Source of the DNA: a phage
Sequence record: PZ445448.1
DNA: 64,000 nucleotides
Reading direction: 5' to 3' (one strand)
Shown here piece by piece: positions 6,107 to 21,516 of the stretch. The first letter of the stretch is position 1. Each line of letters opens with the position of its first letter. Under the pieces are notes generated by a model. That model was given only the letters and a program-made list of their open reading frames with translations, was not told the origin of the DNA and ran no database searches. A program made the position numbers and the translations under genes.

Positions 6107-6126
6107 GAAAGTGCAGGAGATAAAGT

Positions 6127-6888: not shown

Positions 6889-6889
6889 T

Positions 6890-7480
6890 ACTTGAAAATT
6901 CCTGGCATATCAAGTGTAAGGGGGATTTCTAAAATGGATTTCCTCCTTTTGATATTTCACCGGGCTGGATATTTTAAAATTCTTAGAAAATCAGAAAATG
7001 GATCGAAAACTAAAATGGATTTTTCAGAGTAGGCGCGACAAGCTGAATAACTCATCCTATCGTTTGCACCATATTCCAGGCCACCATTATAGATTTCCCA
7101 CACATGCTAACCTCCCTCTACTAGAACTTCCTCCACTTGCCCTTAACCTTCTATGGTAACAATCTAACCACTATCTTGAAGTTGCGGTGCAGCTTTCCAA
7201 GTACTCGATCTACTTTTCATTTCATGGCTTGGATTTTCTGAAAATTTTTCTCGATAAATTTCTCAGTACTCGATCTGTTTTTCGTTTTCTGAATCGGATT
7301 TTCTGGAAATCGTTCCGGATCTCGACCTGAAATTTTTGGGGACGAAATCGATTTTTCGTTTTCAGAAATGGATTTTTAAAATTTCTATATGGGAATATTT
7401 TATGGGATACTGTTTTATAGGAAATTGTTACGGAGGGTAATTAGCATGCTAATTAAATTTATTAAATGCGAGGAGTTCTC
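6890..7480. repeat. gene-free AT-rich region with GGATTTT(C) repeats and duplicated AGTACTCGATCT
   Basis: at least 6 copies of (A)TGGATTTT and two copies of CAGTACTCGATCT; no ORF with SD. Confidence 0.5.
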
Positions 7481-7524
7481 ATTTAGAATTTTGAATGATA
7501 ATCATTCTCGTTTGCAGAATAACG

Positions 7525-7549
7525 GGCAGGCCCGGTGATTGTCTCCCCC
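7525..7549 (+). repeat. 25-bp core GGCAGGCCCGGTGATTGTCTCCCCC inside a longer hairpin; inverted partner at 17149-17173
   Basis: 24/25 identity to the reverse complement of 17149-17173. Confidence 0.6.
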
Positions 7550-7949
7550 GTCACCGGTGCCTGCCGTCCTTTCGATAGGTATATTGTGCCACCTGGCGGG
7601 GCCGCTGTCAACACTTTTCAAAAAATTTTTCTAACCTGATGCGCTAACCGCTGCAACCTGGCGGGGCCAGCCTGGCAGGACCTAACTGACCAGGTAGGAG
7701 AGAATGAAGGCTTGTAAACCTGGTGGGCCTATGCTATAGGACAGGTAACAATTGAAGAGGAGGTACAAAAATGAAAGGTAATGTGATCCCCTGGAAAATG
7801 TAGCTATTAATGACGCTGAGGCTATCGCCCTGGTTGAAAAGGCCATGGCGGGAGCGTTGGAACATAAAGAAGAGTACGAAAAAATGATGGTTAACCTGGT
7901 AGGGCGGCGGCAGGTGGATTCTATCATAAAAAATAATTTAAAATAATTG

Positions 7950-7977
7950 TTGACAACCGGGGGAGTCCTGCTATTCT
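7950..7977 (+). promoter_or_regulatory. sigma70-like promoter, first of the cassette array
   Basis: TTGACA and TATTCT 16 nt apart, followed by strong SD and ATG at 8030. Confidence 0.45.
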
Positions 7978-8029
7978 TACCCTACAAGGTGAACAACACC
8001 GCACTAACTAGTAAAGAGGATAAAAAATC

Positions 8030-8227
8030 ATGAACGCATACGGAATCAAAGTACGTCGCAACACTCGCCAGGTGGTCACCGATCAAGTGGTTTGCCTGGT
8101 GGATGTAACCATCAACAACGGGCAAGGCCTTTATAAATTTCGTCGCGGTCATAGCTATACCCTGCAACAGCTTAATCGTTGCGCCCTGACAAAAGGTCAG
8201 ATCAATCACTGGTTTAATAAAAAATAA
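8030..8227 (+). CDS. hypothetical small basic protein
   Basis: AAGAGGATAAAAAATC-ATG. Confidence 0.55.
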   Translation: MNAYGIKVRRNTRQVVTDQVVCLVDVTINNGQGLYKFRRGHSYTLQQLNRCALTKGQINHWFNKK

Positions 8228-8230
8228 GTA

Positions 8231-8259
8231 TTGACATACGCCCCGACACAAAATATACT
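8231..8259 (+). promoter_or_regulatory. sigma70-like promoter TTGACA-N17-TATACT
   Basis: hexamers with 17-nt spacer. Confidence 0.5.
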
Positions 8260-8291
8260 GAAATCACAAAAGACACTAAGAGGATAAAATC

Positions 8292-8690
8292 ATGAAAACC
8301 ACAACCTTTAATTTTGACAATGCCGACTTCTCTTTTTCTGATGTCAAGAACTGCCGCCGTGATCGTGGATTTTACAAGGCTTATAATCTGGTTGGCCTGG
8401 ACGATGATAATAATTTGCACGAAGTAGCGGAGATCCGGTACTATGCCGCCGCCAGCGGTAACACTAACTACTGCGTTTTTTGGATACACGACAACAAGAA
8501 CAATAAGTACGGTTATACTGGCGGCAAGGCGAGCGGTCACGGTTATGATAAAGCTAACGCAGCACTTGAGAGCGCATTAAATGCTATGGGGATCACTGCC
8601 AACGGCTGGATCTATGAAGAAGAGTTTTTGTCAGCACTTGCTGCCCACCTGGGGTATAAAAAGCACATTGTGACATGCGCCCACGAATAA
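8292..8690 (+). CDS. hypothetical protein
   Basis: AAGAGGATAAAATC-ATG. Confidence 0.55.
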   Translation: MKTTTFNFDNADFSFSDVKNCRRDRGFYKAYNLVGLDDDNNLHEVAEIRYYAAASGNTNYCVFWIHDNKNNKYGYTGGKASGHGYDKANAALESALNAMGITANGWIYEEEFLSALAAHLGYKKHIVTCAHE

Positions 8691-8782
8691 AAAAAAAAAA
8701 AATTATTGACACGCTGCAAAATTCAAGTAAACTATACACAAAAGGCGGGAATGTTTCCCGCCAACACAAAGGAAAAAAGATC

Positions 8783-9178
8783 ATGAATAAGAACGTACGC
8801 CGCATCATGAACGAACTGGCAAACGATGAAAAAATTATTGATATGCATTTGGTCAACATTTGCCGCCGTTGTGTAACATATAACAACCGCGCCGCAAAAG
8901 CGCGTGAGATGAACGCAAAAGGCACCTTAAAGCCCTTTCAGGTGGTTGTAAAATCTATAACCAGTGCAGCAGGCCAGGCGCATGACCACAACAACGGGAG
9001 CACTAATATTGATCCGTCTTACGTAATGAAACGGATCCGGACTTGCAAGAATAAAGAGCAGGTGTATAACGTCATAGATTGGCTGGACTCCCTGGGCGAT
9101 GTGGTTTATAATAGGTTTTCTGCAGCTATCGAGATCCAGCTTGACAGACTGGACGGGAAAGTACTGAAAACTTACTAA
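8783..9178 (+). CDS. hypothetical protein (start at MNKNVRR)
   Basis: promoter, GGCGGGAATGTTTCCCGCC hairpin, CA-rich leader, AAGGAAAAAAGATC-ATG. Confidence 0.55.
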   Translation: MNKNVRRIMNELANDEKIIDMHLVNICRRCVTYNNRAAKAREMNAKGTLKPFQVVVKSITSAAGQAHDHNNGSTNIDPSYVMKRIRTCKNKEQVYNVIDWLDSLGDVVYNRFSAAIEIQLDRLDGKVLKTY

Positions 9179-9180
9179 GT

Positions 9181-9228
9181 TTATTTTTAGATGGCCTTGA
9201 CGCCAGGGCCATCAATAAAGTAAACTAA
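9181..9228 (+). repeat. 45-bp palindromic element copy 1 (TTATTTTTAGATGGCCTTGAC.CCAGGGCCATCAATAAAGTAAAC)
   Basis: near-identical copies at 9800-9846 and 13511-13560; hairpin ATGGCC..GGCCAT overlapping TTGAC -35-like hexamer. Confidence 0.65.
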
Positions 9229-9257
9229 TCCCAGTTAAGCTAAAAGGAGGCTTGAAG

Positions 9258-9377
9258 ATGAGCACTACACGCCAGCACACAAAGGTAACTATTATCGTTT
9301 GCATCATTGGTTATATCCTGGCGCAAATGTTGATGGGTAGCGCCAACGGTGTCGCAAAATTTTTCTTAAACTTTTAA
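9258..9377 (+). CDS. small hydrophobic peptide (39 aa)
   Basis: AAAGGAGG SD 7 nt before ATG; single predicted TM helix; below ORF-track size cutoff. Confidence 0.45.
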   Translation: MSTTRQHTKVTIIVCIIGYILAQMLMGSANGVAKFFLNF

Positions 9378-9455
9378 TTGACAAGCTAACTTAGATCGGT
9401 ATACTAAACACATCAACGGGAAAACTTCCCAGAACACACAAAAGGAGAAAACACC

Positions 9456-9797
9456 ATGACCACTATGACCGCCGCAGAAAAAGCTATTCAGATCGCTGCC
9501 CTGAAAAAACAGATCGCAGACCTTGAGAATAAGATCGATAACTTTGAAATCGACGAGGACAAGTACGACGAAAACTATGATGAATGGTTAGACGAGATCT
9601 ACGGCGAAATTATGATCGGAAACATTTCTTTTCTTCCGTCGCGTATCCTCAAGGAGCTAGATCCTATCGCTTACCGCTGCGGATTTAGCGACTACATCGA
9701 CAGCCTGGATATTGAGGACGATGAAGAATACCAGGAATTACAGACAGAGTTGGAAGAAGCAAAAGAAGAGCTTGCGGAGCTGGAAGAAAACGAGTAA
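9456..9797 (+). CDS. hypothetical acidic coiled-coil protein
   Basis: AAAAGGAGAAAACACC-ATG; promoter and hairpin upstream. Confidence 0.55.
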   Translation: MTTMTAAEKAIQIAALKKQIADLENKIDNFEIDEDKYDENYDEWLDEIYGEIMIGNISFLPSRILKELDPIAYRCGFSDYIDSLDIEDDEEYQELQTELEEAKEELAELEENE

Positions 9798-9799
9798 GA

Positions 9800-9846
9800 T
9801 TATTTTTAGATGGCCTTGACTCCAGGGCCATCAATAAAGTAAACTT
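9800..9846 (+). repeat. 45-bp palindromic element copy 2
   Basis: sequence identity with 9181-9228. Confidence 0.65.
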
Positions 9847-9886
9847 TATACTGTTAACACTGAACTAATGCATAGGAGTTAAAACC

Positions 9887-10132
9887 ATGGCAGCACTAAT
9901 CACTAAATATTACGCCCCTACCAACACCAAAAGCGCCCGTATCATGGTAAAAGGCTTCGGACGTAAAAAGGTTTACACCTGGGATTATGCCTTAGACACG
10001 GAAGACAACTACACCAACGCGATGACAGATTTTATTAATGAGCTGAACACGCGGATCTTGACAAATTATAAAATTACCGATATTGCCTATATAGGGGAAG
10101 GCGGGATCTGTTTTGTCGGTATCGTCAAATAA
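9887..10132 (+). CDS. hypothetical protein
   Basis: AGGAGTTAAAACC-ATG. Confidence 0.55.
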   Translation: MAALITKYYAPTNTKSARIMVKGFGRKKVYTWDYALDTEDNYTNAMTDFINELNTRILTNYKITDIAYIGEGGICFVGIVK

Positions 10133-10208
10133 ACTGTTTTTTCGGTGGTCCTGGTAGCAGGGCCATCTATAAAGATAGTTTATCAATACAATGAAAGGAG
10201 AAAGTAAC

Positions 10209-10562
10209 ATGATCAGTGGGGCAAGTTTTATCATTGGCGCTATTGCTACGGCTTTAATTGTAAATAAGATCCAGGATAAAAAGGAAAGAGGAAGTACCGC
10301 CCTTGCAGAATATCCATTTTGGGCATTCAACGATAACGAAGATTATATTATAAAGTATAAAAATAAAGAAGGTGACCAAGTAACACCACGACCGATCCCG
10401 GCTTACAAAATGCAGGAAACACTATACCGCCTGGAGGCGGGTGGCGCAAAAATTGTAGACTTTTGGGGATACGACCACACAGATCAGGAAGTTATAAAGC
10501 GCCGTATCCGGGCTATTCAGGCCAATATTGAAGTTAGCAAGGGGGGAATATATGAAAATTAA
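10209..10562 (+). CDS. hypothetical membrane protein (start at MISGASF)
   Basis: AAAGGAGAAAGTAAC-ATG; N-terminal TM helix. Confidence 0.5.
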   Translation: MISGASFIIGAIATALIVNKIQDKKERGSTALAEYPFWAFNDNEDYIIKYKNKEGDQVTPRPIPAYKMQETLYRLEAGGAKIVDFWGYDHTDQEVIKRRIRAIQANIEVSKGGIYEN

Positions 10563-10749
10563 TTTCGAGAAAATTGTAAAGCGCCCTCATGATTCCGAAG
10601 AGCTGCCAGAACGCCGCCAGCGTAACAATAAACTGAATAAGCCAAAAAGGTTTGGGAAGATCTGGCGGAATCATTATGATCGTAAATTGCCGGGCCTACT
10701 TTTGGAACGTGAACGACAAGCGGAACGATACCGCCACAAAGACAAATAG
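10552..10749 (+). CDS. hypothetical small basic protein
   Basis: GGGGGAATAT-ATG; overlaps upstream stop. Confidence 0.45.
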   Translation: MKINFEKIVKRPHDSEELPERRQRNNKLNKPKRFGKIWRNHYDRKLPGLLLERERQAERYRHKDK

Positions 10750-10756
10750 CAACCAA

Positions 10757-10786
10757 CGCCCCGCCATTGTGCGGGGCTTTTTATTT
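10757..10786 (+). terminator. intrinsic terminator
   Basis: GCCCCGCCATTGTGCGGGGC followed by TTTTTATTT. Confidence 0.65.
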
Positions 10787-10966
10787 CTATCCTACGAATA
10801 GCGCCCCTGGTTGGCCCTGTAAGCGCCAAAAAGGCCCCCACCTATGCAATCGCCCCTTTAACCTGAAAACATCGCCCAGGGCCGTTTTATGGCGTTAAAA
10901 ATATCATTGACATCGTCAACAGGTTAGCTATACTAACCACATCAAAGAGAGAAAGGAGTAAACGCC

Positions 10967-11227
10967 ATGCGTAAATTAAAAAATTTTGATAAAGTTGATG
11001 TTATCCTGAATAATTTTTACTACTGCAACAACAAGGCTATTTGGTGGCGTGATAGTTCCACCGATAAAGTCAAAGCGCGCTTTCTTCAGGGGCACTGGCA
11101 AGGCCGCCCAGTGATTAAAATCATGGGGCAATTGGTAGCGTTTAAAAATTGCCGCCGTGTTGATGACGTTGAGGAGATTTTAAACATTTTGCGCCACAAT
11201 AATTTAAAAAATAGTGTTGACAAGTAA
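10967..11227 (+). CDS. hypothetical protein
   Basis: TTGACA..TATACT promoter; AAGGAGTAAACGCC-ATG. Confidence 0.55.
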   Translation: MRKLKNFDKVDVILNNFYYCNNKAIWWRDSSTDKVKARFLQGHWQGRPVIKIMGQLVAFKNCRRVDDVEEILNILRHNNLKNSVDK

Positions 11228-11244
11228 ATCTCAATAAGTATAAT
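11217..11244 (+). promoter_or_regulatory. sigma70 promoter TTGACA-N16-TATAAT
   Basis: consensus hexamers. Confidence 0.55.
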
Positions 11245-11301
11245 TAAACACACAGGCGGGAAAACTTCCCGCCACTAACAAAGAAAACAGGAGAAAATAT
11301 C

Positions 11302-11925
11302 ATGACCACCGTTAACATTACCACAGGTTACAATTTAGCTTTCGACGTGCTGACCGACGAACAAAAAGAAAAAGCCGTTGAAATGGTCCGCGAAAGAGAA
11401 GAACACAGCGGGGATAACTTTTTTGCAGAAAGTGTAATTGAAGACTATAAAGAATATATCTTTCCAGAGTATGGCCTTGAAGATACCGAAGTACATTGGT
11501 CCGGCTTTTGGTGCCAGGGCGACGGCGCATCAATCAGTGCGGAAAACGTGGATTTAGAAAAATTCTTGCGTAAAGTCAAGTCTCTGACTAAATTCCGCTC
11601 AATTCGTCACTTGTTCGGCACAATGCACGATGGCGAGCTATCCGCAAGTGTTGAGCGCGATCCATATAGCCGTTATAGTCACGAAAACACTGTAAGCGGG
11701 TACATCGATACTACATGGCTAGACCTGACCGCCAAACAAGAAAACAAAGTGGAAGACCTGGAAGAACTGATCACCGAGACGGTACGGGAGCTATCCCGCA
11801 AGGTTTACGTAGACCTGGAGGAGGCCTATCTAGAACAGTTCACCGCAGAAAACCTGATCGGCCTTATCGAGGCCAATGATTGGCGGTTTGATGTCGATGA
11901 ATATGGTGAGATGACTTTTTCATAA
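11302..11925 (+). CDS. hypothetical protein
   Basis: hairpin GGCGGGAAAACTTCCCGCC then AACAGGAGAAAATATC-ATG. Confidence 0.55.
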   Translation: MTTVNITTGYNLAFDVLTDEQKEKAVEMVREREEHSGDNFFAESVIEDYKEYIFPEYGLEDTEVHWSGFWCQGDGASISAENVDLEKFLRKVKSLTKFRSIRHLFGTMHDGELSASVERDPYSRYSHENTVSGYIDTTWLDLTAKQENKVEDLEELITETVRELSRKVYVDLEEAYLEQFTAENLIGLIEANDWRFDVDEYGEMTFS

Positions 11926-12015
11926 ATAAAGTGTTGCAATAACCTAAAAACCTGCTATATTAAAACTCAAGGGGGCAAGACGTTTGCCCCCACACAAAAC
12001 AAAGAGGAAAACATC

Positions 12016-12396
12016 ATGAAAAACACTACTAAAGCTATTGACACTGTTATGTTTAACCTGGTTACATTCCGTGAAGATATGAAAGATCTTCCACGTGAAA
12101 CAGTGTGCGATCACATTGAAAACTATCGCAAACTAATCAAAGAGTTGCCTTTAAAACGTGACCAGTATGCGGCTAACGCTATGCTTAACGCCATGATCAA
12201 AAAGATGATTCAGTGTGATTTAACTCTGGCCTATGATTATGCAGGTGGTCGTTTTGCAGTATACAATCAGCCCGTGCCTGGTATGAGCACCACCGAAGAA
12301 TTGCACGCGTTAAATCTGAAACAAGATGTATGGGATAACATGCCCCGCGTGGTGGTGTGGGCAGAAAGCGGAAAGATTTACGGCGATAATTTTTAA
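12016..12396 (+). CDS. hypothetical protein
   Basis: hairpin GGGGGCAAGACGTTTGCCCCC then AAGAGGAAAACATC-ATG. Confidence 0.55.
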   Translation: MKNTTKAIDTVMFNLVTFREDMKDLPRETVCDHIENYRKLIKELPLKRDQYAANAMLNAMIKKMIQCDLTLAYDYAGGRFAVYNQPVPGMSTTEELHALNLKQDVWDNMPRVVVWAESGKIYGDNF

Positions 12397-12460
12397 TCAG
12401 GTAACAGGCGGCATATTTGCCGCCTTATTGTTAAACAGAACTGCAAAAGAGGTACATAGA

Positions 12461-12832
12461 ATGGAATTTATTATTTTGGCTGTAGTAGTTGCCTTGTTCA
12501 ACGCCTGGATCGCTGGCAAGATAGGTAGATCCGCTTTTCTATGGTTTGTTATATCTATTTTCCTGGGAGTGGTTGCAACTATTGTATTGGTTATCCTTGC
12601 AATTGTTGACAAGGGCGATAATAGAAAGGGTAAAGTGTTTTCCGACCTGTATGACGCACAAACGTTTGTCAACGCCTATTATAGTGATCTTCCAGTCTCC
12701 CTACGCTGCAGCCTGGCACAACAGGTTTTTGATGAGGCTAAAACCAGAGACCAAGCCCATGAGATATGTTTAACTGAAGCGGATCGCCTATTTGAGAGGA
12801 ATAGAAAATATGTGGACCAGCCGTTTAAATAA
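12461..12832 (+). CDS. hypothetical membrane protein (start at MEFIILAV)
   Basis: terminator hairpin then AAGAGGTACATAGA-ATG; two hydrophobic segments. Confidence 0.5.
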   Translation: MEFIILAVVVALFNAWIAGKIGRSAFLWFVISIFLGVVATIVLVILAIVDKGDNRKGKVFSDLYDAQTFVNAYYSDLPVSLRCSLAQQVFDEAKTRDQAHEICLTEADRLFERNRKYVDQPFK

Positions 12833-12942
12833 CGCCACGTTAATTAATCCCTTTAGTGAAGATTTGAAGCCAGCCGCCTGGCGTGACGGATTCAATAACG
12901 AACGCTTTATTTTCAGGCCTGATCTTGAGGAATTTTATAACA

Positions 12943-13068
12943 ATGGATCGAACAACAGCGGAGATAATTTTTCTTGTGGTGTGCGTGGTGATAGGACTCC
13001 TGGGGGCCATTGTAAACCACGTCACTACTAACAGGAGGGAAGGGGGAGACGATGACAACCAAGGATAA
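12943..13068 (+). CDS. possible small TM peptide
   Basis: hydrophobic 41-aa ORF; competing overlapping ORF 12810-13031 in another frame. Confidence 0.25.
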   Translation: MDRTTAEIIFLVVCVVIGLLGAIVNHVTTNRREGGDDDNQG

Positions 13069-13170
13069 GCCATGCGCTGATAAGGTGCGCCGTGTTATGG
13101 TATGGCTTGAGATTATCGCCCTTGAAATATTGTTAGGCGTAGGGATGTACTTTATCGCTGTAAGTAACTA
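13052..13170 (+). CDS. small hydrophobic peptide (39 aa)
   Basis: GGGGGAG SD then ATG; followed by terminator. Confidence 0.4.
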
Positions 13171-13173
13171 AGA

Positions 13174-13203
13174 GCGGCCCCCGATCATGGGGGCCTATCT
13201 TTT
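13174..13203 (+). terminator. intrinsic terminator
   Basis: GGCCCCCGATCATGGGGGCC followed by TATCTTTT. Confidence 0.6.
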
Positions 13204-13309
13204 AAAAAATTTTTCTTCCGGGGTGTTGCAATCCGGTCCGGAATGTGGATAATAACAATCAACGGGGAGCTAATCCCCACCACCACAAAAACCAGAAAGG
13301 AGAAACAAA

Positions 13310-13510
13310 ATGAGCAACAATATCCGCGTTATTAACTTCAAAAAAGAAGAAAAAATTGCCGTGCTGATTGACGGTCAAGAAATCTTCAAGGGCGACTATG
13401 AAGATCATCAAACGGCGATTAGTATCACTCGCGTGATTGGTTATCATAATTTCTACCCCCAAGGCGCTGAGGCAGCAGTTAAACGAATCAAAGAGATTGT
13501 AGGCCTGTAA
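13310..13510 (+). CDS. hypothetical small protein
   Basis: hairpin GGGGAGCTAATCCCC then AAAGGAGAAACAAA-ATG. Confidence 0.55.
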   Translation: MSNNIRVINFKKEEKIAVLIDGQEIFKGDYEDHQTAISITRVIGYHNFYPQGAEAAVKRIKEIVGL

Positions 13511-13560
13511 AATTTATTTTTAGATGGCCTTGACTTCAGGGCCATCGATAAAGTAAATTT
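13511..13560 (+). repeat. 45-bp palindromic element copy 3
   Basis: sequence identity with 9181-9228. Confidence 0.65.
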
Positions 13561-13603
13561 AAACCCTGTTAAAATACCACGCAGTTAACAAGGAGTGATA
13601 GAC

Positions 13604-13903
13604 ATGTTTATCCAGGCTAATAATCTTTATTTCTTTGATGGTCAGATCGTAGATGGTGTGGAAGTGGAGATCACCGGGTGCCCTGGCGGTCAGGCTATGA
13701 CTTTTCGGAATAATGCCTTTGATGATTCTCATATCGTTATGAGAATGGAAGTTACGAAGCTGGACGACAAGAAAACACTTATTGACTATTCTGTGAAAGA
13801 TCATCCAGACTACCGCATGATCCATGGTGATTTGTGCATTGTTGACCGTGACAAGGTGGGCGGCATTGTGATCGCTATTGTGAACGATGTTTTCTCAAAC
13901 TAA
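13604..13903 (+). CDS. hypothetical protein (start at MFIQANN)
   Basis: AAGGAGTGATAGAC-ATG. Confidence 0.5.
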   Translation: MFIQANNLYFFDGQIVDGVEVEITGCPGGQAMTFRNNAFDDSHIVMRMEVTKLDDKKTLIDYSVKDHPDYRMIHGDLCIVDRDKVGGIVIAIVNDVFSN

Positions 13904-13920
13904 TTTCAGCAGGCGATTTT

Positions 13921-14271
13921 ATGAAAGTCAAACTATATTACCTTAATGAGCTTAACCCCCTTGCCCAGGTCCGCGCCCTAGCTAATACCTTGATTTGTGA
14001 GAAATCTGTATATTGTGTTGAGCTTAACGCCATGCGTGAACGTCTCAAAGGTGGTTACTTTGACATCCATGCTGCAATCAACGGCCTGAATATGGAATTT
14101 ATACGCTTACGTAACAGCCGCCGGAATCTGGCAAGAATGGAACAAGATCCGGCCCACCTTCGTAAGCTGGTTATTGAAAATCATCTGATGTTTAATGCCG
14201 AGGGTGATTATTACCATTTTCACCGCAAACGCTGGTACCGTGGCGGCAATACAGGCAAGAATGCAAAATAA
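13921..14271 (+). CDS. hypothetical protein
   Basis: ORF in array. Confidence 0.5.
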   Translation: MKVKLYYLNELNPLAQVRALANTLICEKSVYCVELNAMRERLKGGYFDIHAAINGLNMEFIRLRNSRRNLARMEQDPAHLRKLVIENHLMFNAEGDYYHFHRKRWYRGGNTGKNAK

Positions 14272-14308
14272 GGCCCCTAGCAGGGCCTGCAGCAATATAA
14301 TCACATAA

Positions 14309-14340
14309 AGGCCATGCGGTTGCATGGCCTTTATTATTTT
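14309..14340 (+). terminator. intrinsic terminator
   Basis: AGGCCATGCGGTTGCATGGCCT followed by TTATTATTTT. Confidence 0.65.
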
Positions 14341-14473
14341 GGCGTTACAACGGCATACGGGGCGCTTAAAAAATTTTTAAAGAAGTACTTGCATCATTCC
14401 CGACAATATGGATAATAAGAGTTGTCGAGGGGGAGGCCCCCAATCGTTGACCAGATAGATAGGAGTTAAAATC

Positions 14474-14758
14474 ATGGCTATTGTTACCGCTGGCGATGTA
14501 GTAGAAATGGAAGCAAAATACTTAAAAGCGGGTATGCACATCCTACGGAATGATCAAGAGTTATTATTAACGATGGTTGACTATAATCACGGCCAGGATT
14601 ATCCAAGCATCGACTACTTTTTTGAGTATGTTGATGAAGAGTTGAAAGAGGATGAGGCCTATTGCGGTGAGTTCTGCAACTTCTTTTGTCCTGATGAGGT
14701 TGTAAAGGTTATTTATCAACCTGGCGTAGCTTTCCCGCTGCACGCTATCAATAAATAA
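14474..14758 (+). CDS. hypothetical acidic protein
   Basis: hairpin GGGGGAGGCCCCC then AGGAGTTAAAATC-ATG. Confidence 0.55.
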   Translation: MAIVTAGDVVEMEAKYLKAGMHILRNDQELLLTMVDYNHGQDYPSIDYFFEYVDEELKEDEAYCGEFCNFFCPDEVVKVIYQPGVAFPLHAINK

Positions 14759-14813
14759 ACCTGGCGGGGCCGAAAAGGCCCCCAATTATGAAAATAAAGA
14801 GAGGCAAATCATC

Positions 14814-15047
14814 ATGATGGAACAAATTAAACGCGCCGAGGCTATTAATGGCAACGTGATCTATTTTGTCAGCAAAAACGAAAAAGGCGTACCATATGCG
14901 GCAGTAATAGTACAACCTGACGGCGATTATTGGTTTACTGTGTACGGCGCTTATTCTTTTGGGCGTCCAGTGCATGATAAAATTTTGAAAGTAGCGAACC
15001 CTACCGGGAAGAATATCACAGCAGAAAAATTTTTTGAAAATAGTTGA
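14814..15047 (+). CDS. hypothetical protein
   Basis: AAGAGAGGCAAATCATC-ATG. Confidence 0.5.
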   Translation: MMEQIKRAEAINGNVIYFVSKNEKGVPYAAVIVQPDGDYWFTVYGAYSFGRPVHDKILKVANPTGKNITAEKFFENS

Positions 15048-15122
15048 CATGACCATATAAGACTGTAATATATAAATCAAAGGGGGCAACTAACCCCACC
15101 AACTACAAAGAGGATAAAAATC

Positions 15123-15302
15123 ATGGCTATTATTGCAAAGACTGAGATCGTAGGCTTAGATTCTATTCTCCTCGCATATGAGGAAGCTATAGAAATGTAT
15201 GTGGTTTCCTATGGTGAGTATATCCGTGAATATAAATCTATTGATCTGGCTTTTGAATGTTATATCCGCCAGGTTAATAAAGCGTACGATGATTATCGTT
15301 AA
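15123..15302 (+). CDS. hypothetical small protein (59 aa)
   Basis: promoter, hairpin GGGGGCAACTAACCCC, AAGAGGATAAAAATC-ATG; below ORF-track size cutoff. Confidence 0.5.
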   Translation: MAIIAKTEIVGLDSILLAYEEAIEMYVVSYGEYIREYKSIDLAFECYIRQVNKAYDDYR

Positions 15303-15389
15303 AATAGTTTGACAACAGCCATCTTACAAAGCATAATACATAAGGCGGTGGAATGGTCCGCCACCTGGAACAAAGAAGAGGTAAACACC

Positions 15390-15635
15390 ATGAAAAGCAA
15401 TAAAGGTTATAACGGTTACAAAAACAAAACTCATTGGAATGTAAGCCTTTGGATTAATAACGATGAGTCATTGTACCGGTTGGCCCAAGGCTTTATTAAC
15501 GCCAATGCTAATCGTAATGATGCGGCGCGGGATATGATGCTTTTTCTGGAGCTAACCGGACAAGATAAGACCCCGGACGGCTTCAAGTACAGCACTACGG
15601 CGATCCGTGCCGCGATGGTTGGAATGAAACACTAA
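15390..15635 (+). CDS. hypothetical protein (start at MKSNKGY)
   Basis: promoter, hairpin GGCGGTGGAATGGTCCGCC, AAGAGGTAAACACC-ATG. Confidence 0.55.
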   Translation: MKSNKGYNGYKNKTHWNVSLWINNDESLYRLAQGFINANANRNDAARDMMLFLELTGQDKTPDGFKYSTTAIRAAMVGMKH

Positions 15636-15712
15636 AAGCACATAGCTGCCTTACCCTGGGGCTGTGGTAGCGGCCCCATGAATAAGGTTACTAACAGAAG
15701 AGAATAAACACC

Positions 15713-15817
15713 ATGAAACAGAAATTAATCGATGCAGTGATCTTGGTTATTGCCCTGGGTATTGGCCTGATTGCAACCATGTCTAATATGATCTTGTCTT
15801 CCAACGGTATCGGGTGA
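15713..15817 (+). CDS. small hydrophobic peptide (34 aa)
   Basis: AGAGAATAAACACC-ATG; single TM helix. Confidence 0.4.
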   Translation: MKQKLIDAVILVIALGIGLIATMSNMILSSNGIG

Positions 15818-15826
15818 GGTTGGCAA

Positions 15827-16042
15827 ATGATCACTAACAAAACAGGCAAAACGGAATTTTTACGCAACTTACAGATCGGCAAGCCTGAGATCTGGTACTG
15901 CACTAAAACACCACGTGACGAAATGAAAGACTTCACCGCCACGCTGCAACGGGTAAAGATATCTATCACGCAGAAAAAGGCCTTACTAGTGGTGGAAGGG
16001 GAGATCCCCCAAACCGTTGTTATAGTTGAGCGTACAGCATAG
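15827..16042 (+). CDS. hypothetical protein
   Basis: GGTGAGGTTGGCAA-ATG. Confidence 0.45.
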   Translation: MITNKTGKTEFLRNLQIGKPEIWYCTKTPRDEMKDFTATLQRVKISITQKKALLVVEGEIPQTVVIVERTA

Positions 16043-16133
16043 TTTAATTTATACAGATACCTGAAAATTAACCAACAAAGCATAAACAGGCGGTTACCGC
16101 CGCCTTAAACGTAGCAGAAAGAGGATAGACACA

Positions 16134-16418
16134 ATGAAAAAGATGATCGCAGTGGTTACCCTGGTTGTTGGACTTAATGCGCCTGTAATGGCTAAAGAGC
16201 TGGCAAAAGAGGTTAATCTAACGGATATTCATGCCGTCAATCAAATCGGGGTTACTTATCGCTTATGCCTTGCCGCTAAAACTTTTAAGGACGGCACAAC
16301 AGAGTACTACGGATTCGAGGGTATCCGGTGCGGTGAGCTTGCTCGCGACCTTAAGGAAGATCCAGACCTGGAGGATCTGCCCATAACCGTGAACGGAAAA
16401 ACTTACGTGAACCGTTAA
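16134..16418 (+). CDS. hypothetical secreted protein with signal peptide
   Basis: hairpin GGCGGTTACCGCCGCC, AGAAAGAGGATAGACACA-ATG; N-terminus MKKMIAVVTLVVGLNAPVMA. Confidence 0.55.
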   Translation: MKKMIAVVTLVVGLNAPVMAKELAKEVNLTDIHAVNQIGVTYRLCLAAKTFKDGTTEYYGFEGIRCGELARDLKEDPDLEDLPITVNGKTYVNR

Positions 16419-16420
16419 CC

Positions 16421-16555
16421 ATGAGAAAGATAATTATTACCATGGGGATCGTGGCGGCAATGTTGGCGATCTTTCCCTTTATGGTTAGGTATGTGCTGAT
16501 TAATGTTGTCCTGGTAGTCAGCGATCTGGTGTTATATATTAACTCATTGTTTTAG
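16421..16555 (+). CDS. small hydrophobic peptide (44 aa)
   Basis: ATG 2 nt after upstream stop; strongly hydrophobic. Confidence 0.35.
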   Translation: MRKIIITMGIVAAMLAIFPFMVRYVLINVVLVVSDLVLYINSLF

Positions 16556-16563
16556 GCGCGATA

Positions 16564-16755
16564 ATGACAGCGGAAGAAGTTAAAAAAGTACTGGCGGTAC
16601 TGCGTTATCATAATCATTGCAAGGTGAAGAATGATCCTGATTATCTTGATTCATCCCTTGAAGAGGATACACTACAAGCCATAAGCAACATGCAAGAATT
16701 GCTTAAGCGTATGACAGAGAAAAACCGACCGGACTACATAGGGGGTAAAATATGA
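16564..16755 (+). CDS. hypothetical protein
   Basis: ORF in array. Confidence 0.45.
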   Translation: MTAEEVKKVLAVLRYHNHCKVKNDPDYLDSSLEEDTLQAISNMQELLKRMTEKNRPDYIGGKI

Positions 16756-17063
16756 TCGCTATTACGCCAACCGTTTTAGATTGGTATCGGCAACGCATAG
16801 CGCCTCCGCTGGCTATCTTCAAAGATGCGGAAGCAAAACAACGCCGGATCTCAATACATGAGATCATCAACCTTAACGCTGGAGGCACACCATACCGCCC
16901 AGGACCTGGCCGTGAGATGGACAATACATTGGCGATCCTGAAGATACGCCGTAAACGGTCCTCCCTTACGCTGGATTCATTACACACAATGCAGTCCCCG
17001 TTCCAGGTGACTGGGAAACGGATCGCCAGGTCCTGGACAAAGGCCAATGACCGGACCGTATAA
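16752..17063 (+). CDS. hypothetical protein
   Basis: ATGA overlap with upstream gene. Confidence 0.45.
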   Translation: MIAITPTVLDWYRQRIAPPLAIFKDAEAKQRRISIHEIINLNAGGTPYRPGPGREMDNTLAILKIRRKRSSLTLDSLHTMQSPFQVTGKRIARSWTKANDRTV

Positions 17064-17148
17064 ATAAAAAGTGTTTTGGTACTGATTTTGGGGTTGACTT
17101 GTTCGGCCCCTTTTGCTATTCTTATTAAACGGGCGGCACTTGGGAACA

Positions 17149-17173
17149 GGGGGAGACAATCACCAGGCCTGCC
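17149..17173 (-). repeat. inverted copy of the 25-bp core at 7525-7549
   Basis: reverse complement GGCAGGCCTGGTGATTGTCTCCCCC. Confidence 0.6.
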
Positions 17174-17281
17174 TGTCATATAAGAACTATAAAAACCGTT
17201 GACATCTGCCAGGGGGTGGGGTAACATTTATCTTGAAGGGGCAAAGGTGCCCACACAACAACCAGAAGAGAGGAAAACACT

Positions 17282-17554
17282 ATGTCAAGCTGGATTAATC
17301 AAGAAGTCGAATCACGTTTTAATGCTATTTGGGATCTCATCGAAAAAGAAGACGGCACATCAAGCCCCTACCTCAACAATTTGGAATTCCATTTTGTGGA
17401 AGCGATGAACGCAGAACATGATCACGAAGGTGGTGCGGACGAGTTCGCTAAAGGGTATGGCTTCAACAATGCCAACGAAATGATCGAGGCGGTTGTACTC
17501 CAGGCTGAGGAAGATTATCAATTAAAAACGCTTGAATTCTGCCGCCGTAAGTAA
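17282..17554 (+). CDS. hypothetical acidic protein
   Basis: TTGACA promoter, hairpin, AGAGAGGAAAACACT-ATG. Confidence 0.55.
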   Translation: MSSWINQEVESRFNAIWDLIEKEDGTSSPYLNNLEFHFVEAMNAEHDHEGGADEFAKGYGFNNANEMIEAVVLQAEEDYQLKTLEFCRRK

Positions 17555-17614
17555 TAAGATAATGACACGGGCCGGGAGGCCCACTAATCAGAACCACACA
17601 AAGAGGTAAACATC

Positions 17615-17878
17615 ATGAAACGTCTTGATCAGCTTAAACTAGTTCAGTACATGGCCTACAAAGTTCTTGAAGTCCAAAAAGGTAGCAAAAAAGAGGTTTG
17701 CGAGAAAGCATATAAGATCTTTACCCGTAAAAAAGATGATTGGATGTTACGCCAGACCAAAAAAGCCGATATCCTGGGATACCTGGAAGAAGAGATCCGA
17801 CTTGAAGAACAAGAAGAGATCCGCCGTAGTGAGGCAGATTATCAGGCAGCTTGGGAAAACTGGATGAGCAACAAATAA
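17615..17878 (+). CDS. hypothetical protein
   Basis: hairpin GGGCCGGGAGGCCC then AAAGAGGTAAACATC-ATG. Confidence 0.55.
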   Translation: MKRLDQLKLVQYMAYKVLEVQKGSKKEVCEKAYKIFTRKKDDWMLRQTKKADILGYLEEEIRLEEQEEIRRSEADYQAAWENWMSNK

Positions 17879-18022
17879 TACAACAAGTTACATGGTCAGG
17901 GGCAATAAAGCCCCTTGATCACATAAAAATTATGCTATCCCTGGTTGACAGGGATCGGCAGTTTTGCTATATTCTTTTTTGAAGGGAAGTTGTAAGAAAA
18001 TTAACTAAGAGGTAAAAACACC

Positions 18023-18442
18023 ATGAACATTAAATCTAATAATCCGGCATATAGCTTTGATAACGCTTTTTGTCACGGTCCGGCGGCGAAAGGATTCGAA
18101 ATCGATGGTAAACTAATTATTGTCAATGTTGACGGGGAAGAGGTTGCAGTATATCCGGTGGCAGACGTAAAAAGCCGTTTACAATGCCGCATGGATGTTA
18201 CCGCCTATCAGCTTGATCCGGTCCGCATAGTTGCCCTGGTCCTGGAAGAAGAAATTAAAGCCATGCACCATAGCAACAGATTTATTGGTGACGCGCAGGA
18301 TAATATGAAAGTATGCCGCCATAAAGTTAATGAAGTGCTTAAAGAGTACGGCTATAAAGATCTTATGATCAAACGTGAGGAAAAATTCCGCTACCGTAAC
18401 GACCTGGCAAATCGGATTTTTGAAATATACGAATCATTATAA
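18023..18442 (+). CDS. hypothetical protein
   Basis: TTGACA..TATATT promoter; AAGAGGTAAAAACACC-ATG. Confidence 0.55.
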   Translation: MNIKSNNPAYSFDNAFCHGPAAKGFEIDGKLIIVNVDGEEVAVYPVADVKSRLQCRMDVTAYQLDPVRIVALVLEEEIKAMHHSNRFIGDAQDNMKVCRHKVNEVLKEYGYKDLMIKREEKFRYRNDLANRIFEIYESL

Positions 18443-18461
18443 TTTTTTAACTGAATTATCA

Positions 18462-18486
18462 AGGGGCTTAGGCCCCTTTCTTTTTG
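18462..18486 (+). terminator. intrinsic terminator closing the plus-strand array
   Basis: AGGGGCTTAGGCCCCT followed by TTCTTTTTG. Confidence 0.65.
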
Positions 18487-18489
18487 TCT

Positions 18490-20950
18490 GCTCTTCCTCC
18501 TACCACAAACGGCCCAGCCTGGCAAGTGGAATAATTGACTAGCCATCAATCCCACACACTGTACAAATATACATGGAAAATAACTATTGCATAATTTTTC
18601 ATTGTGTGGTAGCAGGTCCATTTTTACCCGTTTTCTCTCTCAAAATTGCACGTAATGCCGCTATTGCACAAAATTTAACCTGATGCACATCTTCAATATC
18701 TTGTCAACAACTAAAAATCTTTATAAGTCATACACTTACACACTCACAAAAGCGTGTTCTACGTGAAAAATCGAGTATAACTATAGCCGCCAGATCTCAG
18801 AATTTACGTACGCTCACCATTCTATAGTCTGCTAAGTATTTATTCCAACCATGGAATAACGGAATAGTCAATACCTGCATAAAATAATTATTCGTGTAAA
18901 CTGCATAACATAAATCAGCTCAGGTGTCAACATTTTTCGTAAACAGTCCGAAATTGTCACGGTGAGTTATCATAAACAGAGAAATATTTAGTCGTCTAAT
19001 GTTTACTGTACATTACTATACTGACTGGAATCATTAGATGACTAAGAGAAAGATAAGAAATAATTAACAATACAATTATTTTATCTGTAACAATAAGGCA
19101 ACTATGCAAACGAATGGCATGGCGCGACGGAGTCGCGACATAATATAAAAGCAGTAACCATCACCCCCGTGATAGTTTGTCTGCAAACTATTAATCAGAT
19201 CATAGTTGCCTTGTATTTAGTTAATCATGACATAACAAGCAAGGCAACTATAGATCTTCTAATAGTTGCCCTGCTTTTATATTATGTCATAGAAACACCC
19301 GAAGGGGTGACCAAAGGTCACCTGGCATGGCCAGTGAAAGATTATTAACTTGTTAATTGTTAACTTGCTAATTGTTTTCATGCAAACGAATGTCATGGCT
19401 TATCCTATCTGTGTAAACAGTCAAGGTGTAAACTATCCAGGCGTAAACAATCTATACGTGAACAGTGAAACATGAAATAATAACAGTCGTTATTGTGTCG
19501 AAAGTGTATAAGGTGTCATAGTATGTCAGACAAGTTTTTCTCCTCTTTGTCAAGTGCTGCATGAAAAATTTACAAGCTTGTATGGTAGCATTTTTGCTGC
19601 CCTGTTTACATTCAGTTGTGTATGTATAACCCTTGTTGTGTGGGCGTTTAGACGTCTAGACGGTTGGAAGTCCGCAGGTTAATATCTAATCTATTGGCTG
19701 CTAACTATATCCCACACAAATAGTAAGAAATATAATTGTTATGTGCGTAAACAGTAACTCATGTTATCAATCCCTGTATGTATCGCCAGTGGTGCGCATA
19801 ATGGGTATTATGTTAAATTGCCCGTAATGATAACTATTCTCACAATGATAGGTATTCTCATTCACTCCCACAAGATAGGTTGCAAATGTTGTGCCACTGT
19901 GTGAACGGCCTCACCTATTAATTTGCCTCACTGCCTCGATATTTGAGAATTGTTATAAGAATGAGAAGTATTCCCATTTCGTCCGCCTGGCAGCACTCCA
20001 GTCGCTACCGCTCATGACAGGGCAGAACTAGACCCTCTTCAGATATTTCTGGCTGACTCTTCAGGCCTGTGTGGGAAAAGCCAACCTCTCCGGCGGCGGG
20101 GAGGGGTTTGTCAGGAAAATTGCAGGTCAATTAAAAAATTTACGTGGTATATGAAGCGCTCTTCAGGTAAGGCATGTATTATGGGATGAAACCCTCTTCA
20201 GGCAATGATATTTGTGGGTGTGATATTTGCTGGAAAGCCAGATATGACGGGACTCCCGGCGGGGCAGGGGTAGTACAGACAGGGGAAATATGGAGGATGT
20301 AGTTGGGGGAGTTGATCAAACAGGTAGAGTATGGAATATGTTACAAGTATGTTAAATATGGAGGGTGGATATCTGTAGGATTTATGTGTAAAATCAAAGA
20401 CTTAAGTGGTGTTGTGGTATTTTCTATAAATAATTCAAGTTTAATAGGTAATATTTGTCTCTATCCGCTTTGTGTGGTAAACAAATTCAGATGGTGTTGG
20501 TTTACAAGTGTATACATAATATACAAATTAAAGATACAAGAAACCCCCCTCCCCCTTCGGCTACCATTCACCTTTTCCTCTGACTGGTACTTAAACACTT
20601 ATTCAGACTCTTCAGGTTATCACCCATATATCATATGGCAGTGACTGGTGTCCTCCGGCCCCTCTTTCGTCACCCGTCCGCTTCGCCATGCTAATGCCAT
20701 AGCCAATGGTTCGGTTGTTCACCCTGTTCACTCAGGTGTATCTCCATACCCCTTCAAACCGAAGAGAACAGAAAACCCGAATTACTCGGTAAAAGAAAAG
20801 AGAAGAACTTAATTTTATCAGGATAGGCAAGAATGTCAAGGCATGACTGCTCACTAAACAAGCAAACAGTCATGTGTGGGAGGTAAGTGATTGTGGTGGT
20901 AGGAAATTTAGTTGAAAGATGTGTTATAGGTGCTCCCAGCACTTTAGCCG
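18490..20950. repeat. 2.4-kb gene-free repeat-dense region (GTAAACAG iterons, AAGGCAACTAT sites, CTCTTCAGG repeats)
   Basis: no ORF with SD on either strand; multiple short repeat families. Confidence 0.6.
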
Positions 20951-20966
20951 GGTAGCTAATTGTGTG

Positions 20967-21182
20967 TCAGTCCAGTGGTTCATCACCTACTTCACTGAAA
21001 TCAATGTTCATGGTCTCCTCCCAACCATCAATCTCAGCACCAGAGTAGAGATCTTTAGGACTTACTCCCAAAGCATCAGCAACAGAGTCCATATTTAACA
21101 CCTCTGGCAGGTATGATTTATCGAATTCAAGGTAAATCAGGCCACGAGTATTGTCAGCTCCACCAAATATTTCTATCTTCAT
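20967..21182 (-). CDS. hypothetical small acidic protein
   Basis: AGAGGAGATTTC-ATG on minus strand. Confidence 0.45.
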   Translation of the reverse strand: MKIEIFGGADNTRGLIYLEFDKSYLPEVLNMDSVADALGVSPKDLYSGAEIDGWEETMNIDFSEVGDEPLD

Positions 21183-21303
21183 GAAATCTCCTCTGGAAAT
21201 GAGAGTGTGAACAGGGTTTTATACGTTCCGATGCACAGGAATTATGCACGTTTTCCTCTTCAGGCCATGCTTTAGCATGAGGAACCTGTGTGGGCTCGGT
21301 GCT

Positions 21304-21516
21304 TCATAGTCTACCACCCCTGAACTCTTCGTGCTCAGGCATAATAGAGAACCAGATATCTACGATGTCTTCCCACGTTAGGTCATCAGCCTCAGGATCT
21401 ACCTGGAGCAAAGATGGAGAATCTTCAGAATCGAAGTTTTCCTCTTGCACTGGCTCAGTCAAGGGACATATAGTCACTCCTTTGGATGTCTCTTCAGATG
21501 CATGCGTGTTTATCAT
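21304..21516 (-). CDS. hypothetical acidic protein (internal start of a longer ORF)
   Basis: acidic C-terminal half; upstream half has atypical composition. Confidence 0.3.
   Translation of the reverse strand: MINTHASEETSKGVTICPLTEPVQEENFDSEDSPSLLQVDPEADDLTWEDIVDIWFSIMPEHEEFRGGRL

Follow-up and report, generated by a model that had tools for sequence, protein, structure and literature searches.

Between positions 7950 and 18490 of the 64,000-nucleotide (nt) stretch of phage DNA analysed here (record PZ445448.1; the window) lies a block of 30 plus-strand genes encoding proteins of 34-207 amino acids, which gene calling placed between 8030 and 18442. The subject of this analysis is a composite cassette found upstream of ten of these genes (class A), in which a sigma70-type promoter is followed by a GC hairpin, a leader that is typically rich in A and C, and a ribosome binding site. 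The block is 98% identical over its full length to the Escherichia phages vB_EcoM_366V and MaxTheCat (Vequintavirus), and the part tested against rV5 (8690-15700) is ~92% identical; judged by these identities, the source of the window is an rV5-like Vequintavirus. In annotated relatives the genes of the block are all listed as 'hypothetical protein', and the rV5 genome paper places the corresponding block at the end of a transcription unit of small open reading frames (ORFs), numbered 164-196 (PMC3606486).

Promoters, hairpins and leaders in the small-gene block

A sigma70-type promoter of its own, counting weaker but well-placed sites, was found for 17 of the 30 genes, and all 17 are intergenic. 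Eight of the other 13 genes are translationally coupled to the previous gene, overlapping or abutting it with no spacer, and five have no recognisable promoter; an earlier sequence-only reading of this DNA, which had given nearly every gene its own promoter, went too far in this respect. Sites matching the promoter consensus at ten or more of 12 positions occur 12 times on the plus strand of the block and not at all on the minus strand, compared with 2.0 +/- 1.4 (maximum 6) in 300 dinucleotide shuffles, demonstrating that near-consensus sigma70 promoters are strongly enriched and strand-specific here. The 22 nt upstream of the -35 hexamer are 78% AT, versus 57% window-wide.

Ten of the 17 promoters are followed by a GC hairpin with a stem of 4-9 bp that begins 6-12 nt after the -10 hexamer (Table 1). 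A scripted count gave nine of 17 (p = 1.8e-7), and gene 18 was added as the tenth once its -10 had been placed at 14411-14416. As background, 6% of random 9-nt window spans hold such a hairpin start (binomial p ~1e-7). None of the ten strong promoters elsewhere in the window carries a hairpin (Fisher p = 0.009), and the hairpin class is confined to 8.7-17.6 kb of the 64 kb. The six hairpins quoted in the sequence-only reading were all recovered where it had placed them.

Leaders of the hairpin class consist of 56% A, 33% C, 7% G and 4% T, compared with 32, 20, 23 and 25% for the block. Every cassette has an AAGAGG or AAGGAG Shine-Dalgarno (SD) sequence 7-9 nt before the ATG, the arrangement AAGAGG-N8-ATG being stereotyped (for example AAGAGGTAAACACC-ATG-AAA). 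Predicted folding of the 5' untranslated region (UTR) gave z-scores of -1.0 to -5.4 in the hairpin class and of about 0 in other leaders, with the SD and AUG predicted to be unpaired. A repeat finder independently aligned the leader-SD-ATG segments (families D2, D3 and D6) and the hairpin segments (D4 and D9). The upstream regions therefore share more than generic promoter hexamers, which disposes of an objection that the sequence-only reading had raised against itself. The cassette is real, statistically solid and wider than first noted, and the quantifiers originally attached to it were inflated.

Table 1. Features of the small-gene block in window coordinates (MFE, minimum free energy; R1, covariance model described in the text; numbers between promoter hexamers are spacer lengths in nt)
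Feature	Position	Strand	Description
Gene array, genes 1-10	8030..18442 (all 30 genes)	+	starts 8030, 8292, 8783, 9258, 9456, 9887, 10209, 10552, 10967, 11302
Gene array, genes 11-20		+	starts 12016, 12461, 12810, 13052, 13310, 13604, 13921, 14474, 14814, 15123
Gene array, genes 21-30		+	starts 15390, 15713, 15827, 16134, 16421, 16564, 16752, 17282, 17615, 18023
Class A, gene 3	8706..8782	+	TTGACA-16-TAAACT (8706-8733); hairpin GGCGGGAATGTTTCCCGCC (8744-8762); leader aacacaAAGGAAAAAAGATC; MFE -14.6, z -4.2; R1 44.8 bits at 8737
Class A, gene 5	9378..9455	+	TTGACA-16-TATACT; decayed hairpin GGGAAAACTTCCC (9418-9430); CA-rich leader; family D4; R1 18 bits at 9411
Class A, gene 10	11217..11301	+	TTGACA-16-TATAAT (12/12); hairpin GGCGGGAAAACTTCCCGCC (11255-11273); z -5.4; R1 35.4 bits at 11248
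Class A, gene 11	11934..12015	+	TTGCAA-16-TATATT; hairpin GGGGGCAAGACGTTTGCCCCC (11971-11991); z -4.3
Class A, gene 15	13226..13309	+	TTGCAA-16-GATAAT; hairpin GGGGAGCTAATCCCC (13264-13278)
Class A, gene 18	14389..14473	+	TTGCAT-16-GATAAT; hairpin GGGGGAGGCCCCC (14429-14441); leader not CA-rich
Class A, gene 20	15044..15122	+	TTGACA-16-TAATAT; hairpin GGGGGCAACTAACCCC (15082-15097)
Class A, gene 21	15309..15389	+	TTGACA-17-CATAAT; hairpin GGCGGTGGAATGGTCCGCC (15344-15362), one U.G pair; R1 13.5 bits at 15337
Class A, gene 28	17199..17281	+	TTGACA-17-TAACAT; hairpin GGGCAAAGGTGCCC (17239-17252)
Class A, gene 29	17532..17614	+	weak TTGAAT-17-TAAGAT; hairpin GGGCCGGGAGGCCC (17569-17582)
Promoter-leader cassettes without 5' hairpin	7950-8029 (gene 1), 8231-8291 (gene 2), 10907-10966 (gene 9), 17945-18022 (gene 30)	+	z ~0
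GC hairpins without recognisable promoter	14766-14782 (gene 19), 15658-15677 (gene 22), 16088-16105 (gene 24)	+	upstream of these genes
Class B, copy 1	9176..9226	+	T-rich tract; hairpin GATGGCCTTG/CAGGGCCATC carrying -35 (TTGACG); then TAAACT -10; -25.0 kcal/mol, z -7.9, antisense fold only -16.8; starts at the gene 3 stop codon
Class B, copy 2	9795..9845	+	96% identical to copy 1; -21.1 kcal/mol
Class B, copy 3	13509..13559	+	-24.7 kcal/mol
Class B, copy 4 (degenerate)	10130..10180	+	promoter hexamers lost, two-tier hairpin kept; -27.0, z -7.7; antisense -10.1
Intrinsic terminator	10758-10777	+	hairpin plus T-tract
Intrinsic terminators	12406-12425, 13176-13195, 14305-14334	+	hairpin plus T-tract
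Intrinsic terminators	17090-17110, 18461-18478	+	hairpin plus T-tract

Canonical intrinsic terminators, consisting of a hairpin and a T-tract, were found at only six plus-strand sites in the block, and the proposal that most genes end in one is wrong. A further role as terminators was considered on the opposite strand, where the leader hairpins could stop antisense transcription arriving from the convergent minus-strand late block (22-57 kb) and so shield the early promoters from collision. GC skew follows plus-strand genes to ~21 kb, where they meet the minus-strand block, and shows the convergent gene blocks facing each other at ~18.5-22 kb; in a scan, three hairpins received terminator-like scores for the minus strand (such as GGCGGGAAACATTCCCGCC with TTTTGTGTAT after it). 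However, the T-richness of that strand follows simply from the A-rich start region, most of the tails are poor T-tracts, the block lacks any minus-strand promoter with at least 10/12 matches, and ~3 kb of non-coding DNA and the terminator at 18461 lie in between. Shielding from antisense transcription was judged very unlikely.

Conservation and pairing of the hairpin in related phages

The same module occurs in other phages. In ESCO9 (Justusliebigvirus) class A is more uniform, following the pattern TTGACA-N16/17-TAnnnT-(t)atCACATA-GGGCGGGAAATGGTTTCCCGCC-A-rich-AAGAG-ATG, with ~17 copies in a 9-kb block and no hairpin at the promoters outside it. Further copies were found in Phapecoctavirus tuntematon and ZCKP1, in Certrevirus F4M1E and in Salmonella phage SSBI34. 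Conservation in five genera or lineages of the Vequintavirinae and Stephanstirmvirinae supports the earlier proposal of a shared expression module wrapped around unrelated small ORFs. A 46-nt probe matched 127 phage records and, in nearly all of the matches listed, fell between genes. A covariance model (R1) built from ten canonical copies identified 54 distinct sense-strand sites in six phages; in the window it matched the hairpins of genes 3, 5, 10 and 21, the others being too diverged for it. Across six phages the hairpin begins 9-12 nt after the -10 in 54 of 77 cassettes, while its distance to the ATG ranges from 20 to 33 nt. Searching 7000-22000 against Rfam 15 returned no family, with a single sub-threshold match to RF03091 (33.5 bits against a gathering threshold of 94.4, E = 0.31). 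ESCO9 also contains, at ~7390-7500, an orphan promoter and hairpin cassette with no ORF, directly followed by a second consensus promoter for its gene 20 homolog; the orphan was probably left behind when a gene was deleted.

Within Vequintavirus the block is covered to at least 80% by at least 62 database records. Across ~60-90 genomes it is 91-98% identical and largely syntenic, with single-gene insertions or deletions (indels), so that calling the gene set hypervariable had overstated its divergence. Some 20 GenBank records labelled 'Campylobacter phage' (e.g. MG065690 and MG065647) share 93-95% identity with the E. coli phage block described here; probably the host label is wrong or the lysates were mixed.

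Alignments made with MAFFT (A1 and A2) set the 3' arms of the hairpins out of register, and therefore a covariance-model alignment and an arm-swap permutation test were used to examine pairing. Among 42 hairpins the 5' arm fits its own 3' arm at 4.66 of five positions, compared with 3.35 of five when arms are cross-paired (permutation p <= 5e-5); for the 13 hairpins of the window alone the values are 4.92 and 3.54. In the model-fitted alignment, which leans towards structure and whose copies are related, 97% of cells pair and five of eight pairs have changed on both sides (37 cells), and neither any of 500 shuffles nor any slid register comes close. Orthologs in four relatives keep the stems while the loops change, and the WM ortholog of gene 11 shows compensatory changes in the arms. 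The G-rich arm comes first in 40 of the 42 hairpins, a polarity that says nothing about the strand, since a G-first hairpin also reads G-first on the opposite strand. A role for the class A hairpin at the 5' end of the RNA is inferred from its position, which is locked to the -10 and not to the ATG; the sequence that follows it is capable neither of pairing nor of terminating transcription. The hairpin upstream of gene 24 has the loop TTACCG in the window, rV5 and Murica and the reverse complement, CGGTAA, in FV3 and WM, with identical arms, which looks like a small inversion within an inverted repeat.

The conservation of the motif could also mean that the hairpin is a specific recognition element, acting at +3 to +22 either in the RNA or as a palindrome in the DNA, which is bound by a phage-encoded factor and defines an immediate-early regulon (serving, for example, promoter shut-off, RNA polymerase modification, or selective protection or destruction of these mRNAs). 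Only one contiguous subset of early promoters carries the hairpin, at 8.7-17.6 kb here and in the ~9-kb block of ESCO9; the 5' arm GGGCGG, the preceding CACATA and the loops AATGG and AATAG recur across two subfamilies; and R1 finds its 54 sense-strand matches in six phages. Within the window, however, the stems vary freely (GGCGGGAA, GGGGGCAA, GGGGA, GGGCA, GGGCC), as do the loops (TGT, AAC, GACGT, GCTAA, AGG), leaving no invariant base outside the G/C pairing, and no candidate binding protein was identified. Moreover, orthologous genes of ESCO9 and tuntematon carry different hairpin variants, each genome favouring its own, which points to exchange among cassettes and makes the consensus explicable by concerted evolution. 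We consider such a recognition element doubtful.

The 51-nt repeat, the encoded proteins and the surrounding DNA

A second element, missed by the sequence-only reading, is a different kind of cassette: a 51-nt repeat (class B, repeat family D1) present in four copies, of which that at 10130 is degenerate. Its plus-strand RNA is predicted to form a lower stem of 10-12 bp, a 2x3-nt internal loop, an upper stem of 10 bp and a tetraloop, ~20 bp in all, in which the -10 region is paired with the T-rich tract that precedes the -35, and the -35 itself lies in the inner 10-bp stem beside the tetraloop. Predicted energies are -21 to -27 kcal/mol (z -6 to -8) and only -10 to -17 for the antisense strand, G.U pairs making the sense fold 6-17 kcal/mol more stable. 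The degenerate copy keeps the fold through changes on both arms, with two G.U pairs on the plus strand, and has lost the promoter hexamers, which speaks for selection on the RNA structure apart from any promoter activity. Class B elements begin at, or a few nt from, the stop codon of the preceding gene; Murica, rV5, FV3 and WM all retain them, whereas the Stephanstirmvirinae loci have none.

In phage T7, RNase III processing hairpins lie between the early genes, and these sites contain no promoter. Class B resembles them in its lower stem, small asymmetric internal loop, upper stem and tetraloop of ~20 bp, in its location between cistrons of an early polycistronic region and in a fold specific to the sense RNA, whereas it differs in containing a promoter, and the likeness is geometric only. 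Class B sets a promoter within a two-tier hairpin of ~20 bp in the plus-strand RNA, where the preceding gene ends, and would most likely be a processing or 3'-stabilising structure for the upstream RNA.

The proteins of the block are essentially uncharacterised, as the sequence-only reading had expected. Each of the 30 products matches one PHROG family essentially end to end, all of them of 'unknown function'. Pfam families were assigned to only two, the product of 10552-10749 (PF08200, T7 gp1.1-like) and that of 15390-15635 (DUF7249), leaving 28 of 30 with no Pfam family, and NCBIfam and PDB sequence searches returned no match. Seven proteins contain a hydrophobic segment resembling a transmembrane helix, in agreement with the single-pass peptides noted before. 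The largest protein (11302-11925) was modelled confidently with AlphaFold, from 20 homologs, as a mixed alpha/beta structure (predicted local distance difference test score, pLDDT, 87; predicted template modelling score, pTM, 0.78), and Foldseek found no match to it in the PDB at E <= 0.001. This protein has an invariant G-F-x-x-Q-G-D-G motif and invariant R119 and H127 positions, and on the basis of the model it is a candidate for a new fold or enzyme. The genes at 12016-12396 and 15390-15635 have homologs with 70-83% DNA identity in unrelated coliphages (jumbo phages BF17 and 121Q-like, and the 42-kb PGT2), and by this distribution behave as widely shared accessory genes. The gene 10/11 region (query 2643-3691) also matches the Felixounavirus-like phage Av-05.

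The GC content of the block is 0.43, the same as that of the rest of the window, so the GC comparison suggested with the first description of the block revealed no difference and an origin as a foreign island was rejected. The upstream small-gene region (1-7900) has near-consensus sigma70 promoters at 72, 410, 5058 and 5514, whose leaders are short and hairpin-free, so that early promoters of this phage occur in two kinds of context. Downstream, 18500-20900 comprises ~2.4 kb with no ORF of at least 60 codons on either strand and corresponds to the 'non-coding' box on the rV5 map. Within 19088-19279 the motif ATAGTTGCC(T/C)TG recurs in iteron-like fashion, in both direct and inverted orientation, and there is an 18-nt inverted repeat without mismatches (19137-19154 / 19271-19288); the stretch may be an origin or control region.

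Precedents, recombination and proposed function of the cassettes

Judged on its sequence features, the closest known precedent of the cassette is the promoter-early stem-loop (PeSL) of the T4-type phages RB49/phi1, PST and nt-1 (Arbiol et al. 2010, PMC2839356; Comeau et al. 2014, PMC4122927). PeSLs combine a consensus sigma70 early promoter and an AT-rich upstream tract with a stem-loop, often 'polyG followed by polyC', and with an SD and ATG at the 3' end; they are packed between orphan ORFs, mediate indels and mini-circles, and fall into five subclasses by stem-loop position, including overlap with the -35 and location downstream of the -10 (PMC2839356, PMC4122927). The block likewise has 17 near-consensus sigma70 promoters with an AT-rich upstream tract and an SD and start codon at the 3' end. 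Its ten hairpins after the -10 (class A) and three to four enclosing the -35 (class B) match two PeSL subclasses, and they are dense among tiny orphan ORFs, with some indel or replacement junctions falling in the motif. RB49 PeSLs that we inspected read TTGACA-GGGGATCnnnGATCCCC-TATAAT-ACACACATACCGAAACGAA-AGGAGAATCAAA-ATG, and their leaders (ACACACATACCGAAACGAA...AGGAGAATCAAA-ATG) are similar in style.

There are also clear differences. The phages belong to the Vequintavirinae and Stephanstirmvirinae and not to the Straboviridae. The RB49 stem-loop lies mostly in the spacer between -35 and -10 and is therefore not part of its own transcript, whereas the hairpin described here lies dominantly in the 5' UTR, 9-12 nt after the -10, with a consensus of its own (GGGCGGGAAATGGTTTCCCGCC) and no T-tract or terminator-like tail. 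In RB49, terminator activity and mini-circles have been demonstrated. Homology between the class A hairpin and the RB49 stem-loops was rejected, as R1 had no match on the RB49 PeSLs; its only hits in that genome were a weak site at 10979-11010 (E = 0.005) and an opposite-strand echo of it, beside the tail-tube gene.

Genome-wide, 33 sigma70 promoters and 20 terminators have been predicted in rV5 (Kropinski et al. 2013, PMC3606486), and in the Certrevirus phages CB7 and CR3/8/9 a TTGAC-N19-TATAAT promoter with an UP element is concentrated in the early region (Buttimer et al. 2020, PMC7344957). The promoters described here are the ones covered by these predictions, and they sit in a short-ORF region of the same type. 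Word searches of PMC3606486 and PMC7344957 returned no post-promoter hairpin, stereotyped leader, 51-nt repeat or link to PeSLs; in the literature we found nothing connecting PeSLs with rV5-like or phi92-like phages, nor any account of the cassette in this group.

An RB49 PeSL stem-loop lowered lacZ expression like a strong terminator (PMC2839356), and the hairpins could accordingly be attenuators or terminators of transcription from upstream promoters, the function proposed for PeSLs, insulating the cassettes and limiting the build-up of read-through. Promoters here succeed one another with no terminators between them, and class B and the promoter-less hairpins lie at the 3' ends of genes, as such a function would have it. 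However, the leader hairpins run into A/C-rich sequence, with a mean of 0.8 T in the next 8 nt compared with 5.7 after the six real terminators. The ten leader hairpins and the four class B hairpins all lack a U-tract directly after the stem; by sequence, the leader hairpins are therefore not intrinsic terminators. An attenuator would also have no need of a fixed 9-12-nt distance from the -10, and we regard attenuation as unlikely.

The leader of phage T7 gene 10 (phi10) has a 5' hairpin of the stabiliser type. Hairpins at the 5' ends of the ompA and papA mRNAs hinder RppH and 5'-end-dependent decay by RNase E (review PMC3997798). The class A module would be like these three in placing a stable hairpin a few nt from the 5' end, in this case a predicted one, ahead of an open leader and SD; assuming a start ~7 nt after the -10, 0-5 unpaired nt would precede the hairpin. 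It is unlike them in that each of those hairpins belongs to one gene, for which the 5' end has been mapped and the half-life measured, whereas the module has ten copies per genome at predicted starts. The hairpin promoters of the N4 virion RNA polymerase and the antitermination sites lambda nut and HK022 put were also considered and set aside because the promoters are plain sigma70 sites, the loops are unconserved in the window, and there is one short stem, with no boxA/boxB and no two-stem put structure. The module is not a new principle, its ingredients each being known singly.

Comparison of the block with rV5, FV3, WM and Murica revealed single-gene indels. In rV5, which has no gene 21, the promoter-hairpin cassette of that gene is fused to gene 22 via a shared AGAAGAG-TAAACACC-ATGAAA, and an extra gene, ORF166, is bracketed by a duplicated 35-nt leader (the leader of gene 29). 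In FV3, homology breaks off precisely at the -35 of the promoter of gene 20 (15044-15049), beyond which the sequence runs on as GTATCACATAGGGCGGCAATAGT; window genes 20-22 are replaced there by a segment of ~0.7 kb (FV3 10031-10800) that is 90-96% identical to ESCO9 and contains a phi92-type cassette together with its gene. By its sequence this segment has been transferred from one subfamily to another by a crossover in the promoter. A deletion of gene 30 has its junction between two terminator hairpins. About four of the eight indel or replacement junctions thus lie in cassettes (the gene 21 deletion, the ORF166 insertion, FV3 and gene 30), in a small sample.

These junctions raise the possibility that the hairpin has no expression function and is a DNA-level feature (a cruciform or recombination hot spot) or a hitch-hiker in a selfish mobile cassette. 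The inverted loop of the gene 24 hairpin and the orphan, gene-less cassette of ESCO9 would fit such an origin, as would the PeSL crossovers, which were mapped in or next to the loop (PMC2839356), and the two strand tests given below, which gave no clear preference for the sense RNA. On the other hand, the stems are kept by changes on both arms while the loops drift, and this two-arm maintenance argues for selection on pairing; in addition, the flanking leader is compositionally tuned, and the class B fold favours the sense RNA through its G.U pairs. A purely DNA-level role is, in our view, quite unlikely.

The reading that we prefer, and hold to be probable on balance, is that this is the block of early genes of an rV5-like phage, arranged in composite, PeSL-like cassettes for gene expression, in which the hairpin protects or insulates the mRNA and the repetition of the cassette drives gene shuffling. 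The promoter sequences strongly imply that host sigma70 RNA polymerase uses the block early, starting at the 17 near-consensus promoters with their AT-rich, UP-like tracts and producing nested, mostly unterminated transcripts. In ten cassettes, as the spacing suggests, the transcript would begin 0-5 nt before a stable G-first GC hairpin, which would be succeeded by an A/C-rich, non-pairing tract and the AAGAGG-N8-AUG ribosome site. By analogy with ompA, papA and the T7 phi10 leader, it is plausible that the 5' hairpin stabilises the mRNA by shielding its 5' end from RppH and RNase E entry; it could also mark a structural boundary in read-through RNA, and the unstructured leader would keep the SD open. 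The combined effect would be high, context-independent expression of any tiny downstream ORF. More speculatively, rV5 gp11 has been reported as a homolog of T4 Srd (PMC3606486), which stimulates RNase E against host mRNA (PMC4980113), and with RNase E boosted in this way phage early mRNAs would benefit from 5' protection. Being repeated, the cassette would serve as a homology patch by which single genes are inserted, deleted or swapped within and between subfamilies, a role that the junctions described above illustrate in a few cases.

Several observations weigh against this interpretation. Three hairpins (those of genes 19, 22 and 24) have no promoter, and seven promoters of the block, together with all strong promoters elsewhere in the window, have no hairpin; the hairpin is therefore not needed for early expression as such. 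Class A sense rows contain 13 G.U pairs and eight A.C mismatches (p = 0.38), the comparison of sense and antisense MFE gave p = 0.11, and a perfect GC palindrome would suit a DNA-level role just as well. Only about four of the eight junctions fall inside cassettes, the other four (genes 17, 25 and 27 and a WM replacement) being outside. In the literature we found no transcriptome or start-site map for the Vequintavirinae or Stephanstirmvirinae, and the 5'-terminal position of the hairpin is therefore a prediction. Finally, conservation of GGGCGG and of the AATGG/AATAG loops across subfamilies could reflect a specific binding partner and not generic stability.

The hairpin (CACATA-GGGCGGGAAAUGGUUUCCCGCC and its covarying variants) might be a dedicated, uncatalogued cis-regulatory RNA motif of the rV5-like and phi92-like early regulons, read by a phage or host factor, although we give this little credence. 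If it were true, the hairpin would be more than a generic stabiliser, providing for example selective escape from Srd-boosted RNase E or a timed shut-off, and class B would be an RNase III-type processing site with a promoter embedded in it.

Myoviruses of the rV5-like and phi92-like groups are often considered for therapy and biocontrol, yet their early genes are almost entirely uncharacterised. The cassette provides a sequence rule by which early transcription units can be located and very small genes assigned their correct starts, and it suggests a concrete way in which phage early mRNAs may be made robust. As a compact natural part comprising promoter, 5' hairpin, leader and ribosome binding site, the module could also be used in the design of expression constructs for E. 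coli. Taken together, the data suggest that the PeSL idea, in which regulatory cassettes double as recombination sites, extends from T4-type phages to two more subfamilies and includes one documented exchange between them (FV3/ESCO9).

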